NCBI GenBank assembly: GCA_963650805.1 | Contig: CAVJMG010000004.1 | Span: 44,155-108,154 of the forward strand | Length of the DNA stretch: 64,000 bases | DNA from: an uncultured Bacteroidales bacterium | GTDB taxonomy: Bacteria > Bacillota_I > Bacilli_A > RFN20 > CAG-826 | Reading direction: 5' to 3' | Part shown: piece by piece, positions 22,310-52,172 of the stretch | Layout: each line of letters begins with the position of its first letter | How positions within the stretch are numbered: the first letter of the stretch is position 1 | Program-made: the position numbers and the translations under genes | The notes under the pieces: generated by a model | What the model was told of the DNA's origin: nothing | Databases searched by the model: none | What the model saw: the letters and a program-made list of their open reading frames with translations, nothing else

Positions 22310-22642
22310 GCTGACTACCGTTTAATGGCAACCAGGCTATCTCAAGGAGACCCTTTGGCTTTGCGTCGCCAAGTTGCCTTGGCTTTGCTTTTATCTTTTG
22401 CTATTGTAGGACAACTAAAAAGGTTTTGAAAGCGAAAAGCGTTATTGTTGACGGAAAAATTGCATAAATTGTTATTTCAACTTCTTGATTTTTCTTTAGA
22501 TTGATCCCGCATGTTGTTTTGTCAACCGTCGTTTGCAATCCATAATGCGGTTCCTTCGCATGTTTTTATATCTAACTTTTTCTTCTTGGGGTCATCTCCG
22601 TAAGGTATAATCCATCAGACAAACAAAGGAGAATGACAGATA

Positions 22643-25675: not shown

Positions 25676-25866
25676 GTTTGTCTCTAGGCCCTTGCGCATA
25701 AAAGCGGGGGCTTTTTCTTATGGCTTTAGGTCGCTTGCTTTTTTACAAAGCGCTCCTTGAAAGACGCGGGTTTAATAGTGTCATTATTCATTGCGTCAAA
25801 AAACTCTTTTATTTTTAGGGCTAAATAAAACTTAAATGCCGAAGATATCGAAAGTCTTTGCAAAAA

Positions 25867-25950
25867 AACTGCTCACTGAAAAGACAAAATAATGCTCACT
25901 GAAAAGTCGAAATAATGCTCATTGAAATGGCAAAATGTTGCTCATTTATA
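25867..25950 (+). promoter_or_regulatory. Four direct repeats of about 23 bp (AATAATGCTCACTGAAAAGNCNA type) ending at the TATAAT -10 of the downstream ATPase gene.
   Basis: TGCTCACTGAAAAG at about 25870 and 25893. TGCTCATTGAAATG at about 25916. TGCTCATTT at about 25939. Period 23 bp. Confidence 0.4.
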
Positions 25951-25978: not shown

Positions 25979-27289
25979 ATGAGTTTGAGGAAACTGAAAA
26001 TGGGCTTATGGAAAAACGGCACTCCCTACAAGAAAAGGGTAATCGACCAAACGATAGAGGAATATTTAAGCGTCGCTGGGGCCGTATGCGTTGAGGGACC
26101 GAAGTGGTGCGGCAAAACTTTCACGTCCATTTTCCATTCAAAAAGTCGTTTTATGGTTGGGGATCCCGAGAGGGGCTTCTCCAATAGAGAACTCGCCAAA
26201 TTGGATCCGAATTTCGTGCTGCAGGGCGATGCCCCGAGGACGATTGATGAATGGCAAGAAGTGCCCTCCCTTTGGGATGCAGTTAGATTTGAGGTGGACA
26301 AGAGAGGCCAAAAGGGTCAATTCATCCTCACCGGTTCTTCGACACCCATGAAGAAAGGCGTTCTCCATAGCGGCGCTGGCAGAATCGTTCGGCTCAGAAT
26401 GAATACGATGTCCTTGTACGAAAGCGGAGATTCCACGGGGCAAGTTTCTCTCAAAGAACTCTGCGATAACCGCTTATCAAACCAAATGATTGGGGAGAAG
26501 TCTATTTTGGATTTGGCGACTTTCATCGTTCGTGGCGGTTGGCCTCAAAATATCGATGTCCCTTCAGCAAAATGCCACTTGATGCCAAAGGCCTATATTG
26601 AGACGCTTATTCACGAGGATATTCAGAAATTAGATGATTCAGTGGAGTATGATGAGCGCAAGTTTGAACTGCTCCTTAAATCTTTGGCGAGGAACGAATC
26701 AACGACTGCTTACGATGCGACGTTGCTTAACGACGTCATTCAAAACGACAGCGAGTCCATAGGCAGGAACACCATCGTTAAGTATTTGGACGTTATGAAA
26801 CGTTTATTCATATTGAATAATCAAGAGCCATACGCCCCTTCTCTTCGTTCGTCTTTGAGGGTAAAGCAAAATGAGAAAAGGCATTTCTCCGATCCGGCTA
26901 TGGCTTGCGCGCTATTGAACATTACCCCAAGCAAATTGTTGGGGGATATGCATACCTTCGGATTTTTGTTTGAGGCTCTTGTTGAGCGCGATTTGGCCGT
27001 TTACGCACAAGCCTTCGGCGGAAAGCTGTTCCATTATCAAGATTACAAAGACAATGAAATCGACGCTGTCATCGAGCTTGAAGATGGCCGTTGGTGCGGC
27101 ATAGAAATAAAATTAGGCTCAAATCAAATCGAAGAGGCCGCGGCTAATTTGAAAAGAATCAACGCCTCTTTGATAGCAAGCGGAAATGAAGGAGCTCAAT
27201 CCTTAATTGTCATCGTAGGCTTGGGGAACGCCGCTTACAAAAGAGAAGACGGCGTCCTCGTCGTTCCAATCTGCGGTTTAAAGGATTGA
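25979..27289 (+). CDS. AAA+ ATPase with a C-terminal DUF4143-like domain (AAA_14 + DUF4143 architecture).
   Basis: Walker A GPKWCGKT. Walker B FILTGSS. Clear paralog of 42046-43338 (ILFDEWQDAP, TGS, RMNPMSLFE blocks). Confidence 0.75.
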   Translation: MSLRKLKMGLWKNGTPYKKRVIDQTIEEYLSVAGAVCVEGPKWCGKTFTSIFHSKSRFMVGDPERGFSNRELAKLDPNFVLQGDAPRTIDEWQEVPSLWDAVRFEVDKRGQKGQFILTGSSTPMKKGVLHSGAGRIVRLRMNTMSLYESGDSTGQVSLKELCDNRLSNQMIGEKSILDLATFIVRGGWPQNIDVPSAKCHLMPKAYIETLIHEDIQKLDDSVEYDERKFELLLKSLARNESTTAYDATLLNDVIQNDSESIGRNTIVKYLDVMKRLFILNNQEPYAPSLRSSLRVKQNEKRHFSDPAMACALLNITPSKLLGDMHTFGFLFEALVERDLAVYAQAFGGKLFHYQDYKDNEIDAVIELEDGRWCGIEIKLGSNQIEEAAANLKRINASLIASGNEGAQSLIVIVGLGNAAYKREDGVLVVPICGLKD

Positions 27290-32427: not shown

Positions 32428-32565
32428 CAAAGGAGAAAAACGCAAAAACGAGAGCTGCATTTTGCGACTTGGGCTTCTTTGTTTCCTTTCTTGGAATTCG
32501 TAGTGCCTGACTTTAAGGATCAGGCGTAGAAACTGTCGGACCACATCTCCAACATATACGACCTA
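32428..32565 (-). promoter_or_regulatory. Purine riboswitch, guanine/hypoxanthine type (C discriminator), with a downstream intrinsic terminator as the expression platform.
   Basis: Minus-strand RNA: UCGUA-UAUG-UUGGA(GAUGUGG)UCCGA-CAGUUUCUAC-GCCUGA(UCCUUAAAG)UCAGGC-ACUACGA. P1, P2 and P3 all pair. The J2/3 GUUUCUAC core is present. Terminator GCAAAAUG-N7-CGUUUUUGC plus UUUUU at about 32428-32470. RBS GGAGGA follows. Confidence 0.75.
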
Positions 32566-32701
32566 TCGACGTTAATTAAATATATATAGAAAAAAGGCCC
32601 TATCCACATGAAAGCGGTTTATCGAAGAAATTCCCCTTTTCTTGTTTTTGTTTGCCGGCACCCTTGATAGAATAATGGGCTAGAAAGAAGGTTTAAACAC
32701 C

Positions 32702-42045: not shown

Positions 42046-43338
42046 TTAATTTCGCAAGGATCCAATAGGGATGACGATAACGCCGTCTTCACGCCTATAT
42101 CCGTACTCCGTGCCCGTTATTATCAATTTCAAATCCGGTTTCCTTAAAGGGCATTGTTTCTCTTTTTTGTTGTATTCTTTTATCAAGCGTTCAATTTCGC
42201 ACAAATGCTTTGCTCCTTTGTCTACTTCGTATTCTCCTAATTTGAATTCAATTAAAGCATATCGTCCGTCCTCTAGATGAAGTACGGCATCGGCTTCTAA
42301 TCCATACCTATCGTGGTAATAAGAAACGACACCGCCTTTTTCTTGGGAGTATATTTTCAGATCTCTTATGCACAAAGACTCAAACAGGAATCCTAAGGTT
42401 TTGAAGTCTTTGTAAAAATATTCAGGAGATAGACCTAGAGCCGCAACGGCGAGAGAGGGATCCACGAAATTCCTCTTTTTGCCAGTTCTGATATTGGATT
42501 TGCTCCTAATCGCCGGAGACCAGGGCTCGATGTCTTCAGTGATATAGAGCTTCTCGAGCGCGTTTATATAATCGTAGAATGTCGTTTTTGAGATGTCGTA
42601 ATTGCTTTTGACGTCGTCATAGATTGTTTTTGTGCTGCTGAGTGTGCAAATGTTTCTGGCATAAGACAGCAGAATCGTTCTTACCCATGTTGGATTTCTT
42701 GTTTTGTGGTCTAGCTGTGAAACGTCTCTTGAATAGGTTTGCTTAAATAGGTCTTTTGCAATCAACTGCTGTTGGTTTACATTTCCGTCGAAAAGCAAGC
42801 ATCGTGGCCATCCACCTACGCAGATGGCGTTGATGATATCTTCTATGGTCATTTTTGATTTGCATCCGGAAAATGAATTGGGCGAGTCGAATAGTTCCAT
42901 CAAACTGACTTCGCCCGTTGATTTGCCCATTTCGAACAAACTCATTGGGTTCATTCTCACCGTTGCTATTCTTAACGTTCCGGTGTGCGGCGTCGCCACT
43001 TGCGCCGAGGTGGAGCCGGTTAAATAGAATGAGCCAACGTCAGCCGGATTGTCATCACAGTTTTTACGAATTGTGCCCCAGATTTTGGGCGCATCTTGCC
43101 ACTCGTCAAACAAAATAGGTTTTGGGTTTTTCAATAATTGCGACGGGGAAATGGATGCAATAGCGAGGAGATTGTCCCTTTGCTCTTCGTCTTGAAACTC
43201 GATTACGGTTTTCGCCCTTTGTTTTGCCGTTGTTGTTTTGCCGCACCCTTTTGGCCCGAAGATACAAACGGCATTATAGACTTTCGTTATCTCGTCTAAA
43301 GCCTTATCTATTACTCTGTTTTTATATCCGTAAGTCAT
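42046..43338 (-). CDS. AAA+ ATPase with a DUF4143-like C-terminal domain (paralog of 25979-27289).
   Basis: Walker A GPKGCGKT. ILFDEWQDAP. Start set at the MTYGYKNRV ATG (RBS gagg). The track start at 43410 adds 24 residues and runs into the upstream repeats. Confidence 0.75.
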   Translation of the reverse strand: MTYGYKNRVIDKALDEITKVYNAVCIFGPKGCGKTTTAKQRAKTVIEFQDEEQRDNLLAIASISPSQLLKNPKPILFDEWQDAPKIWGTIRKNCDDNPADVGSFYLTGSTSAQVATPHTGTLRIATVRMNPMSLFEMGKSTGEVSLMELFDSPNSFSGCKSKMTIEDIINAICVGGWPRCLLFDGNVNQQQLIAKDLFKQTYSRDVSQLDHKTRNPTWVRTILLSYARNICTLSSTKTIYDDVKSNYDISKTTFYDYINALEKLYITEDIEPWSPAIRSKSNIRTGKKRNFVDPSLAVAALGLSPEYFYKDFKTLGFLFESLCIRDLKIYSQEKGGVVSYYHDRYGLEADAVLHLEDGRYALIEFKLGEYEVDKGAKHLCEIERLIKEYNKKEKQCPLRKPDLKLIITGTEYGYRREDGVIVIPIGSLRN

Positions 43339-43398: not shown

Positions 43399-43472
43399 TA
43401 AAACGGACACTTTCGTTGTAAATAAGTGAAGAACTTCGTGGTAACAAAACGAACACTTTCGTGATGAAATTA
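43399..43472 (-). promoter_or_regulatory. Three direct repeats of about 23-24 bp (ACACTTTCGTTGTAAA / AACTTCGTGGTAAC / ACACTTTCGTGATGAAA) upstream of the DUF4143 ATPase gene.
   Basis: AAAACGGACACTTTCGTTGTAAA and AAAACGAACACTTTCGTGATGAAA are near-identical, with a degenerate copy between them. Confidence 0.35.
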
Positions 43473-44876: not shown

Positions 44877-44908
44877 AAAAACGCAGAAATCCTGCGTTTT
44901 TATTTTAT
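44877..44908 (+). terminator. Intrinsic terminator after guaB.
   Basis: AAACGCAG-aaatc-CTGCGTTT followed by TTATTTT. Confidence 0.7.
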
Positions 44909-45000
44909 ATCCAATAAAATAGTGAGGATTTGTGCGGTTTTTGCAATGCTGTTTTGCATTGCTTTCTTTGATGGCCGTGCGCCTTATTGATCTATTATCT

Positions 45001-45092
45001 AAATGACCAAAAATTTTCAAAATGACCAAAACATATGATGAATGACCAAAGACTATAGTAAATGACCAAAAATTATTGATTTGATCAAAAAT
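45001..45092 (+). promoter_or_regulatory. Five iteron-like direct repeats (AATGACCAAA) at 19-20-bp spacing, directly upstream of the ATPase-HTH gene.
   Basis: ATGACCAAA at about 45003, 45022, 45042 and 45062. Degenerate TGATCAAAA at about 45082. Preceded by the inverted repeat GCAATGC-N6-GCATTGC. Confidence 0.5.
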
Positions 45093-45129
45093 CCATTTTA
45101 TATTGTGACTGCTGGAGGAAATAAGAAGA

Positions 45130-46170
45130 ATGGATAACCCTTTCAATGCAACATTTGGCGAATTGCCCCAAAGCTTTGTTTCCCGGGAGAAAGATATCGC
45201 CACGATTCGAACGGCGTTTGGCGGAGACAATCCCGAATCTAAGGTTTATGTTATTTCAGGGGCTAGAGGCAGTGGGAAAACCGTCTTGCTTACAGCGCTA
45301 ACCAACTTGTTTAAAGATGATGGCTATATTTGCGTTGACCTTAATCCTTATGAAGATTTGAACGAACAATTTGCTTCAAAACTGTATGAAGGCGGAAGGC
45401 TGAGGAAGCTATTCCTACACCCCGAGTTTTCCTTTTCTTTTAAAGGCGTCTCCTTAACCGTCAGCGGGGACACCGAGATTAGCAACGTCTACACCTTCAT
45501 AGAAAAAATGCTCTCGTATCTTAAAAAGAAGAAAAAAAGGGTTTTGATAACCATCGATGATGTTTCCAACAACGACTGTGTCAAAAGCTTTATTTTTTCG
45601 TTTCAACAGATGATAAGAAGTGGGTATGACGTATTTCTGCTTGTTACTGGTCTCTATGAAAACGTCTCGGAATTGGAGAGAAACAAAAGCCTTACCTTCT
45701 TCTTGCGGGCGCCAAAGCTCAATCTGGAGCCTTTAAATCTTTTTGAAATCGTCTCGCTTTACAAAAGCCTTCTGAGTTTGGGGGAATCCGACGCCATCAA
45801 AGCCGCGAAATTGACGAAAGGATATGCTTATGCCTACCAGCTCATGGGCTCGCTGATTTATACGAATGGCATTAAGCCCGATATTCTTGACGAATATGAC
45901 AAAAGGCTGATTCAAAACTCTTATTCGTTAACCTGGGAAAAGCTCACCCGCAAAGAAAAAGAATTTCTCTACGCCCTGGCTGATAGCACGTCTCAAAAAG
46001 ACATAACCAAGGCCCTTAATATGAGCAACGGCAATTATCAAACCTACAAGAAAAGGCTCGCTGATAGGGGACTTATCTTGGCCAAGGAAAGGGGCAAAGT
46101 CGATTTTGCTTTACCTAGGTTTAAAGAATTCGTAAGGCTTGAAAAGGCTTTATCCGACGACGAAGAATGA
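45130..46170 (+). CDS. P-loop ATPase with a C-terminal helix-turn-helix (LuxR/wHTH-like). Likely a sequence-specific DNA-binding ATPase.
   Basis: Walker A GARGSGKT. Walker B VLITIDDV. C-terminal LTRKEKEFLYALADSTSQKDITKALNMSNGNYQTYKKRLADRGLI. Confidence 0.6.
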   Translation: MDNPFNATFGELPQSFVSREKDIATIRTAFGGDNPESKVYVISGARGSGKTVLLTALTNLFKDDGYICVDLNPYEDLNEQFASKLYEGGRLRKLFLHPEFSFSFKGVSLTVSGDTEISNVYTFIEKMLSYLKKKKKRVLITIDDVSNNDCVKSFIFSFQQMIRSGYDVFLLVTGLYENVSELERNKSLTFFLRAPKLNLEPLNLFEIVSLYKSLLSLGESDAIKAAKLTKGYAYAYQLMGSLIYTNGIKPDILDEYDKRLIQNSYSLTWEKLTRKEKEFLYALADSTSQKDITKALNMSNGNYQTYKKRLADRGLILAKERGKVDFALPRFKEFVRLEKALSDDEE

Positions 46171-52069: not shown

Positions 52070-52172
52070 AAAGGCTTTCTTGAGTAGATGGTCCGCGTTA
52101 AGTGCTTGGGGATGGGAGGTCGCCCCAAGACGAAGGAACAATCCGCGGTGGGCCATCGCTGCCGCTTGGATA
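52070..52172 (+). promoter_or_regulatory. THF (tetrahydrofolate) riboswitch.
   Basis: GAGUAGAUGGUCCGCGUUAAGUG...GAUGGGAGGUCG...ACGAAGG...CCGCGGUGGGCCAUC...CCGCU matches the THF-I aptamer. Helices covary: GAUGGCC/GGCCAUC and CUUGGGG/CCCCAAG. Downstream CCUCCCC can pair with the RBS GAGGAAAGG. Confidence 0.8.

Follow-up and report, generated by a model that had tools for sequence, protein, structure and literature searches.

A phased direct-repeat array as the putative self-operator of a solitary winged-helix ATPase gene in an uncultured bacterium

The 64-kb stretch of contig CAVJMG010000004.1 analysed here (the window; positions are counted from its first letter) carries five direct repeats, phased at 19-20 bp, upstream of a gene for a 346-aa P-loop ATPase with a predicted C-terminal winged helix. 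We propose that this protein binds its own array and autoregulates its gene, a reading to which we assign a probability of roughly 0.65. A first-pass annotation of the same sequence had seen in the repeats a geometry fit for cooperative binding by an oligomerising ATPase, serving either autoregulation or an origin- or partition-like site. Autoregulation is backed by conservation of the arrays across the protein family, by covariation of the repeated motif with the predicted DNA-reading helix and by overlap of the sites with the promoter; the origin- and partition-like options found no support.

The 10-mer AATGACCAAA occurs in four exact copies on the + strand, starting at 45002, 45021, 45041 and 45061, all inside 70 bp. 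No other exact copy is present on either strand of the 64-kb window. With up to one mismatch allowed, four scattered, lone sites are found beyond the array, and the total of 8 matches against 6.5 expected is at chance level, so that the repeat is not the common low-complexity motif that the annotation had named as one threat to its reading. The same array was recovered by repeat finders. Chance or low complexity as the source of the repeats was also rejected on the grounds that AATGACCAAA is unique to this site in the window and that shuffled sequences and control regions are mostly without arrays (see below). Five repeats had been counted at first, which holds for the four exact copies; the fifth, TTTGATCAAA at 45080-45089, is degenerate and departs from the 10-mer at 3 positions and from the 8-nt core TGAYCAAA at 1. 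Homologues have their promoter-proximal copy in this slot (TTGAAATGACCAAAA in locus L003, for example), and judging from this position we regard the diverged copy as a genuine member of the array. Measured from core to core, the steps are 19/20/20/19 bp, which reproduces the 19-20-bp phasing noticed earlier. The array as a whole (45002-45089) lies 41-128 bp 5′ of the ATG at 45130. An Rfam search of the region gave no match near any gathering score, and the region is therefore not a known RNA element. The elements upstream of the gene are as follows, with centres given relative to the predicted transcription start.

45002-45011, + strand: repeat 1, exact AATGACCAAA, centre about -104
45021-45030, + strand: repeat 2, exact AATGACCAAA, centre about -85
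45041-45050, + strand: repeat 3, exact AATGACCAAA, centre about -65
45061-45070, + strand: repeat 4, exact AATGACCAAA, centre about -45, stopping 5 bp short of the -35 hexamer
45080-45089, + strand: repeat 5, degenerate TTTGATCAAA with core TGATCAAA, centre about -26, covering the spacer and the last part of the -35 hexamer
45076-45104, + strand: predicted sigma-70-type promoter TTGATT-17-TATATT, 9/12 consensus matches (a consensus match only)
45114-45119, + strand: ribosome-binding site GGAGGA, read from the sequence, 10 nt 5′ of the ATG

The upstream regions of homologues were read at 80 genomic loci, whose proteins are 38-78% identical to the 346-aa ATPase. An array was scored when at least five copies of an 8-mer, one mismatch allowed, were found within 170 bp upstream. 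By this count 61 of 77 homologous loci are array-positive, against 19 of 239 control genes in the same loci and 1 of 77 shuffled sequences. The control positives are mostly divergent neighbours that use the same intergenic array. A register-independent count found at least three copies of a defined core in 75 of 78 loci. The steps between successive copies are predominantly 10 bp (173 steps), 19 bp (114) and 20 bp (27), and 339 of 362 deviate by at most 1 bp from a multiple of 10. The copies are nearly all oriented alike, with 445 direct and 18 reverse. The three more distant plasmid homologues that were fetched have arrays as well: ATACTAAAG is present seven times on Pseudobutyrivibrio pNP95 (33% identity), AGTAAAATG five times on Lactobacillus crispatus p1 (30%) and GTTTCACC, without A-tracts, four times on the high-GC Arthrobacter pAD51 (27%). 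The array thus survives deep divergence, across phyla and GC content. Cultured carriers of the gene include Anaeroplasma bactoclasticum ATCC 27112 (L038) and Lactobacillus crispatus Lc116 (L211).

The motif is uniform inside each array and differs from clade to clade. Clade motifs include ATGACCAAA, ATGACAAA, ATGATAA, AGTTCACAA, AGTTAATA and AGTATGAA, and further AGTATAA, AGTTATAAA, TTATAGA, A[ATG]TACAA, ATACAA and CTTAACA. We scored all 343 alignment columns for association with motif class, using a statistic that is uncorrected for phylogeny. T305, N300, N302, Q304 and G301 are among the top 10 of the 343 columns (hypergeometric probability 4e-8, likewise uncorrected) and make up five of the six residues (300-305) that open the predicted recognition helix. 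The N-terminal half of this helix shows a mean association about twice that of any other region. At the level of single residues, proteins with ...LQTYK are paired with GACC in 9/9 loci and those with ...LQ[V/I/M]YK with GACA in 23/23. Two loci run across the phylogeny: the protein of L026 is nearer the GACA type, yet has QT and GACC, and that of L009 is nearer the GACC type, yet has QM and GACA. Eleven genomes hold 2-4 paralogues (four in the metagenome-assembled genome CAVKLJ01), and in ten of them all scored paralogues belong to different motif classes; the eleventh has one scored paralogue only. Because co-resident paralogues have differing motifs, neither one global factor nor mere curvature of the DNA can explain the arrays. 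The adjacent winged-helix protein would be the most economical reader of its array. A strong association with motif class was also seen for K38, just ahead of the first beta-strand, and for N263 of the helical domain. Both residues lie outside the winged helix, and their association could be a phylogenetic signal or could point to an extra DNA or inter-protomer contact.

The sites lie over the predicted core promoter of the gene. In 59 of 59 loci in which a promoter was called at 9/12 or better, by consensus match only, at least one site has its centre in the interval from -38 to +20. Homologues most often show the ladder -28/-47/-67/-87/-106, and the layout in the window is the same. Close homologues have a proximal copy that is fused with the -35 hexamer (TTGAAATGACCAAAA, about 9 nt, TATATT). 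In a subclade with AGTATGA repeats (L046, L049, L054, L057, L069, L072 and L081) the repeats begin just past TTGACA and cross the ribosome-binding site, and the final repeat (AAGTATG) includes the start codon. On the Arthrobacter plasmid the array adjoins the ribosome-binding site. Since the sites lie in the core promoter or the leader, we argue for repression by occlusion.

The gene product was characterised by profile searches and by an AlphaFold model built on 45 homologues (pLDDT 88, pTM 0.85). Its parts are located as follows.

45130-46170, + strand: gene for the 346-aa ATPase_2 P-loop nucleoside triphosphatase (NTPase) with C-terminal winged helix
45259-45282, + strand: Walker A, GARGSGKT, residues 44-51
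45553-45558, + strand: Walker B, D142-D143
45937-46119, + strand: winged-helix domain in the model, about residues 270-330
46027-46065, + strand: predicted recognition helix, residues 300-312, NGNYQTYKKRLAD

Pfam ATPase_2 (PF01637) matches residues 16-163 with 50.5 bits against a cut-off of 33.2, and AAA_16 likewise scores above threshold. G44, G49, K50 and T51 of Walker A and D143 of Walker B are invariant across the 45 homologues. Three domains are seen in the model, namely the P-loop domain, a helical one and a C-terminal winged helix made up of helices 274-285 and 289-296, the recognition helix at 300-312 and a beta-hairpin wing at 316-326. The P-loop ATPase with a C-terminal helix-turn-helix (HTH) that had been noticed from the sequence is thus recovered, the ATPase by profile and the HTH, as a winged helix, in the model. 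Pfam HTH models reach sub-threshold scores only (GerE 17.5 against 23.5; HTH_24 also below). The STAND models all stay below threshold (NB-ARC 16.6 against 23.5, NACHT 15.5 against 26.7, nSTAND3 24.4 against 27.2), and an NCBIfam scan gave no model close to its cut-off. The protein terminates one helix past the winged helix, with no C-terminal sensor repeats and no separate effector domain. The comparison with other ATPases proposed in the annotation was run as a fold search, which returned 2QEN (Pyrococcus abyssi PABY2304; score 21.4, 298 residues aligned) and 2FNA (Sulfolobus SSO1545; 20.4, 296 residues) as best matches, followed by plant NLR NB-ARC modules and CED-4 (about 19), archaeal Orc/Cdc6 (13-15), and, lower, DnaA (12) and MalT (11). 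A sequence-profile search of the PDB gave nothing beyond P-loop-level or weak HTH matches, with E above 5e-4. The predicted full-length fold agrees with 2QEN and 2FNA in its nucleotide-binding domain, helical domain and winged helix; it also has the layout of Orc1/Cdc6, an AAA+ module with a C-terminal winged helix, and the nucleotide-binding oligomerisation module of STAND proteins. Sequence and fold both place the protein in ATPase_2, and on the model it is a small STAND/Orc-like NTPase ending in a winged helix. The family is large, with 552 clusters at 50% identity reaching E <= 1e-30 and 1681 reaching E <= 1e-10, and a look-up of the clusters returned a single named member, 'ArsR family transcriptional regulator'.

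From these observations we infer physical binding of the array, its cooperativity, its dependence on nucleotide and the sign of regulation. The five repeats would form a private operator of the downstream ATPase gene, in which one protomer reads one TGAYCAAA repeat through the recognition helix at residues ~300-312. Protomers on sites of the same orientation and roughly the same helical phase would touch head-to-tail through their AAA+/STAND-like nucleotide-binding domains, in contacts that probably depend on bound nucleotide and that we liken to those in DnaA, Orc and STAND assemblies. Cooperative nucleation on the four perfect upstream sites (-104 to -45) may then let occupancy extend to the weak site at -26, proximal to the promoter and within the -35/spacer region, where the assembly would exclude RNA polymerase and repress the gene. 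The outcome would be negative autoregulation with a threshold.

Several points weigh against this proposal. Covariation of motif and protein is partly expected from shared descent. A site over the -35 could also suit a MalT-like activator, a geometry that may apply in the main clade, which leaves the sign of regulation uncertain, and some clade motifs (ATGACA) resemble a -35 hexamer and may mislead the promoter call. The winged helix of STAND proteins is usually an intramolecular latch and not a DNA reader. A 10-bp step seems tight for 40-kDa protomers, and the stoichiometry may differ from one protomer per repeat. Finally, the explanation is incomplete, as a protein that does nothing other than repress itself has no purpose.

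Three more orphan ATPase genes in the window each have their own upstream repeats.

26000-27289, + strand: AAA_14 + DUF4143 gene (PDC-S01, E 2e-58), preceded by four copies of TGCTCACTGAAAAG with a period of 23 bp at 25860-25944
42046-43338, - strand: AAA_14 + DUF4143 gene (PDC-S01, E 4e-48), preceded by three ACGAAAGTGTTCG-like copies with a period of 23 bp at 43400-43463
8929-10287, - strand: ATPase_2 + DUF234 gene (PDC-S27, E 5e-41), with repeats at 10303-10336

The last TGCTCACTGAAAAG copy before the first of these genes overlaps a TATAAT, and translation probably starts at ATG 26000, which follows GAGGAAA, rather than at ATG 25979. For the second gene the repeats lie 60-125 bp upstream; the list of open reading frames starts it at GTG 43410 and the public gene calls at ATG 43338 (430 aa). 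The third has CACTGAA twice, 15 bp apart, and an inverted CAGTG just before the ribosome-binding site; its likely start is ATG 10287, which follows GGAGG, and not 10299. Elsewhere, in samples that are small and uncontrolled, arrays of 2-4 copies with a 23-bp period were found upstream of DUF4143 genes at L206-L209, L087, L110, L139 and L213-L216. These comprise viral-contig loci, three chance matches of a metagenome scan and plasmids of Collinsella, Bacteroides ovatus, Prosthecochloris and Actinomyces, and span Bacteroidota-like, Actinomycetota, Chlorobiota and Bacilli contexts. Two DUF4143 orthologues that are 69% identical have different motifs, GCCAAATTTCCAA and GCCAAATGACCAAA. Five or six other DUF4143 loci (L008, L043/L053, L071, L203 and L217) are without such an array. 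Arrays with a 15-bp period were seen upstream of DUF234 genes on a Natronorubrum plasmid, which is archaeal (L219), and on a Rhizobium plasmid (L221). The DUF4143/PDC-S01 and DUF234/PDC-S27 families thus appear to carry similar arrays, with periods of 23 and 15 bp. Both PDC-S01 and PDC-S27 belong to the commonest candidate defence systems and are experimentally unvalidated (PMC12988326).

A broader and rather speculative extension is that such arrays are a defining cis-component of the orphan P-loop ATPase superfamily (COG1672/COG1373). Each would be a private, phased loading platform for a nucleotide-dependent filament of the gene's own product, with a family-specific period of ~10 or 19-20 bp for ATPase_2 + winged helix, ~15 bp for ATPase_2 + DUF234 and ~23 bp for AAA_14 + DUF4143. 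The filament at its own locus might be a surveillance or defence machine at rest, or the arrays might be independent chromosomal 'address' marks. Doubtful as we hold it to be, a superfamily-wide platform would, if true, offer an initial mechanistic entry to ATPases that are among the most abundant uncharacterised ones in bacteria and archaea.

Other explanations of the array were weighed against autoregulation. If the protein were an Orc1/Cdc6- or Rep-like initiator, the repeats would serve a chromosomal or integrated replicon as its iterons or origin-recognition boxes. What is iteron-like here is the geometry alone, phased direct repeats beside the gene for the 346-aa protein. The Orc1/Cdc6 model TIGR02928 gives it 16 bits against a cut-off of 181.3, with the P-loop region alone aligning, and no Rep family matched in the Pfam or NCBIfam scans. 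The window has no GC-skew inflection, and no obvious AT-rich unwinding element was seen in the sequence beside the array. Genomes with 2-4 paralogues have an array for each, and in every scorable locus (59/59) the array sits on the promoter or ribosome-binding site. No replication, partition or mobility neighbour is conserved, and no relatives were found in IMG/VR viral contigs or GenBank phages. A (distant) homologue was found on 21 of 72,556 plasmids, and the three inspected sit among glycosyltransferase, transporter or toxin-antitoxin genes, outside replication or partition modules. We consider an origin highly improbable, and we give equally little credence to a centromere-like or partition site of the parC, parH or tubC type, where the ATPase would bind and segregate or organise DNA and autoregulation would be a by-product. 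Direct-repeat arrays on the promoter of the first par-operon gene are indeed typical of ParR/parC, omega/heptads and TubR/tubC, and paralogues whose specificities do not overlap could function as a set of independent 'addresses'. The Walker A motif, however, is the classical GxxGxGKT and not the deviant ParA form KGGxxK[ST], the Pfam scan gave no match to ParA/CbiA families, and the predicted fold is STAND/Orc-like, unlike ParA, actin or tubulin. Moreover, no partner gene is conserved, and the gene is chromosomal, single, monocistronic and rare on plasmids.

The repeats might instead go unread by the neighbouring protein and be phased A-tracts, giving curved DNA or an UP-like element, or the sites of another factor. 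The motifs do end in A-runs that recur about every 10 bp, a spacing that bends DNA, and AT-rich Firmicute promoters often have curved upstream DNA. However, the conserved part is a core other than the A-tract (TGACC, GTTCAC, GTATGA, GTTTCACC), uniform in each array, different between paralogues and covarying with the recognition helix of the adjacent protein; the Arthrobacter array lacks A-tracts, and control upstream regions lack such arrays. This makes an unread array very unlikely. There is somewhat more to be said for a defence or surveillance ATPase, an immune sensor of the sort proposed for the nuclease-bearing PDC-S27 and PDC-S01, which the array would keep as an inactive filament, setting its dosage until it is released or activated by a trigger. 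The three sister ATPases in the window match PDC-S01 and PDC-S27 and have their own repeats, the fold is near NB-ARC and Avs-type STAND immune sensors, and paralogue expansion in variable genomic context is typical of defence genes. Against this, the PADLOC PDC-S27/PDC-S01 models give the 346-aa protein no significant match (best E 1.5e-4 to 6.5e-4, with just the P-loop aligning for PDC-S01), Pfam found no nuclease, other effector domain, DUF234 or DUF4143 in it, and no defence-island context was seen in the window or at the homologous loci. The defence role that the first-pass annotation had held equally possible thus finds its sole basis in the nuclease-bearing sister families, which are themselves unvalidated candidates, and we think it unlikely.

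The genomic setting agrees with a gene that stands on its own. Around the array lie genes for IMPDH, a MATE transporter, GMP synthase and a RarA-like ATPase, so that the earlier statement that no plasmid or phage genes are nearby holds. No conserved neighbour or operon partner was found around the 77 scored homologous loci, and since no neighbouring gene family is conserved there, the gene and its array make up a self-contained module. The gene has a local GC content of ~42%, close to that of its neighbours, and so shows no clear evidence of having been acquired recently. A terminator-like hairpin closes the upstream IMPDH gene, and the ATPase gene is therefore a separate transcription unit.

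44877-44901, + strand: terminator-like hairpin of the upstream IMPDH gene

Between this hairpin and the array, a 13-bp tandem duplication at 44939-44963 (TTTTGCAATGCTG / TTTTGCATTGCTT) gives rise to another terminator-like hairpin (44943-44962). A search for other clusters of each locus's own motif, as suggested at the outset, covered 532 kb of flanking DNA rather than whole genomes; it gave none that was convincing and four marginal AT-rich cases only. A metagenome-wide scan for three closely spaced copies of ATGACCAAA gave at least 120 matches; none of the matches listed adjoins a homologue of the family, and as most of those listed are unrelated tandem repeats, the scan is uninformative on further targets. 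Riboswitches above Rfam gathering thresholds are present in the window for tetrahydrofolate (52078-52169, + strand), purine (32481-32581, - strand) and c-di-GMP-I (22324-22399, - strand), and fit a Firmicute-type genome. Among the homologous loci, the organism labels of records from metagenome-assembled genomes (L004, L005, L009, L045, L054 and other 'H07xxx/G02xxx cleanbin' loci) look unreliable: labels such as Bacteroides uniformis, Phocaeicola dorei, Alistipes and Parasutterella do not fit the content of the loci. A 327-kb contig labelled B. uniformis encodes a GMP synthase 75% identical to that of the window, and the named relatives of that protein are metagenome-assembled genomes called 'Bacilli bacterium'. 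On the evidence of its GMP synthase, the window itself would derive from an uncultured gut 'Bacilli' lineage.

The proposed self-operator shares features with several known systems and differs from each. The archaeal Walker-type ATPases of ATPase_2/COG1672 (2QEN, 2FNA) are alike in fold, and the 346-aa protein is merely 14-15% identical to them; we found no paper on the function or DNA sites of either structure. Orc1/Cdc6 proteins also join an AAA+ module to a C-terminal winged helix and have origin boxes beside their own gene. Unlike theirs, the present sites are same-orientation 10-bp units on a promoter and not inverted boxes flanking an unwinding element, the protein fails the family model, several paralogues per genome have distinct motifs, and there is no skew signal. 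DnaA shares arrayed boxes and autoregulation of dnaA; it binds DNA through a domain IV of another type than the winged helix, possesses domains I and II in addition, and has one box sequence conserved per phylum, whereas each paralogue of the ATPase family has a private motif. MalT, one of the MalT/LAL-type STAND regulators, is a functional analogue in its use of MalT boxes. The present protein differs in having no sensor domain (346 versus ~900 aa), a GerE score below threshold and its own promoter as the only target found, with a geometry that suggests repression over activation. Iteron Rep proteins, ParR/parC, omega/heptads and TubR/tubC share the phased direct-repeat array overlapping the promoter of the binder gene, and autoregulation. 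Their binders are small winged-helix, ribbon-helix-helix or HTH proteins without an ATPase, encoded in plasmid or phage replication or partition modules. Here, by contrast, ATPase and putative DNA reader are joined in one polypeptide, and the gene is solitary and chromosomal, with no phage and few plasmid relatives. PDC-S27 (ATPase_2 + DUF234) and PDC-S01 (AAA_14 + DUF4143) share related P-loop modules and gene-specific upstream direct repeats (~15 and ~23 bp); they differ in a C-terminal PD-(D/E)XK nuclease domain, which the 346-aa protein lacks, and their models do not match it. Taken together, the protein lacks the tested defining features of the Orc1/Cdc6, Rep, ParA, LuxR-type, classical STAND and PDC-S01/S27 families. 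In the searchable literature, itself incomplete, neither upstream arrays nor DNA binding were found described for the ATPase_2 family or its sisters. On the reading proposed here, the protein would bind DNA as an ATP-dependent oligomer and have its operator array at its own gene.

ATPase_2/COG1672 and COG1373 proteins are very abundant in bacteria and archaea and occur as many paralogues. To our knowledge, no function has been known for them since they were first noticed in archaeal genomes. Arrays matched to a recognition helix suggest a concrete activity for them, namely sequence-specific, probably nucleotide-dependent assembly on their own promoter. The pairing of residue 305, T or V/I/M, with GACC or GACA makes a simple candidate recognition code, and natural, insulated regulator-operator pairs of this kind could serve as parts for synthetic biology. 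If the arrays proved general across the sister families, this would change how 'defence candidates' should be studied. What makes the finding of interest is how broad the family is, how clean the candidate recognition code, and that the arrays may extend to two of the most abundant uncharacterised ATPase families.

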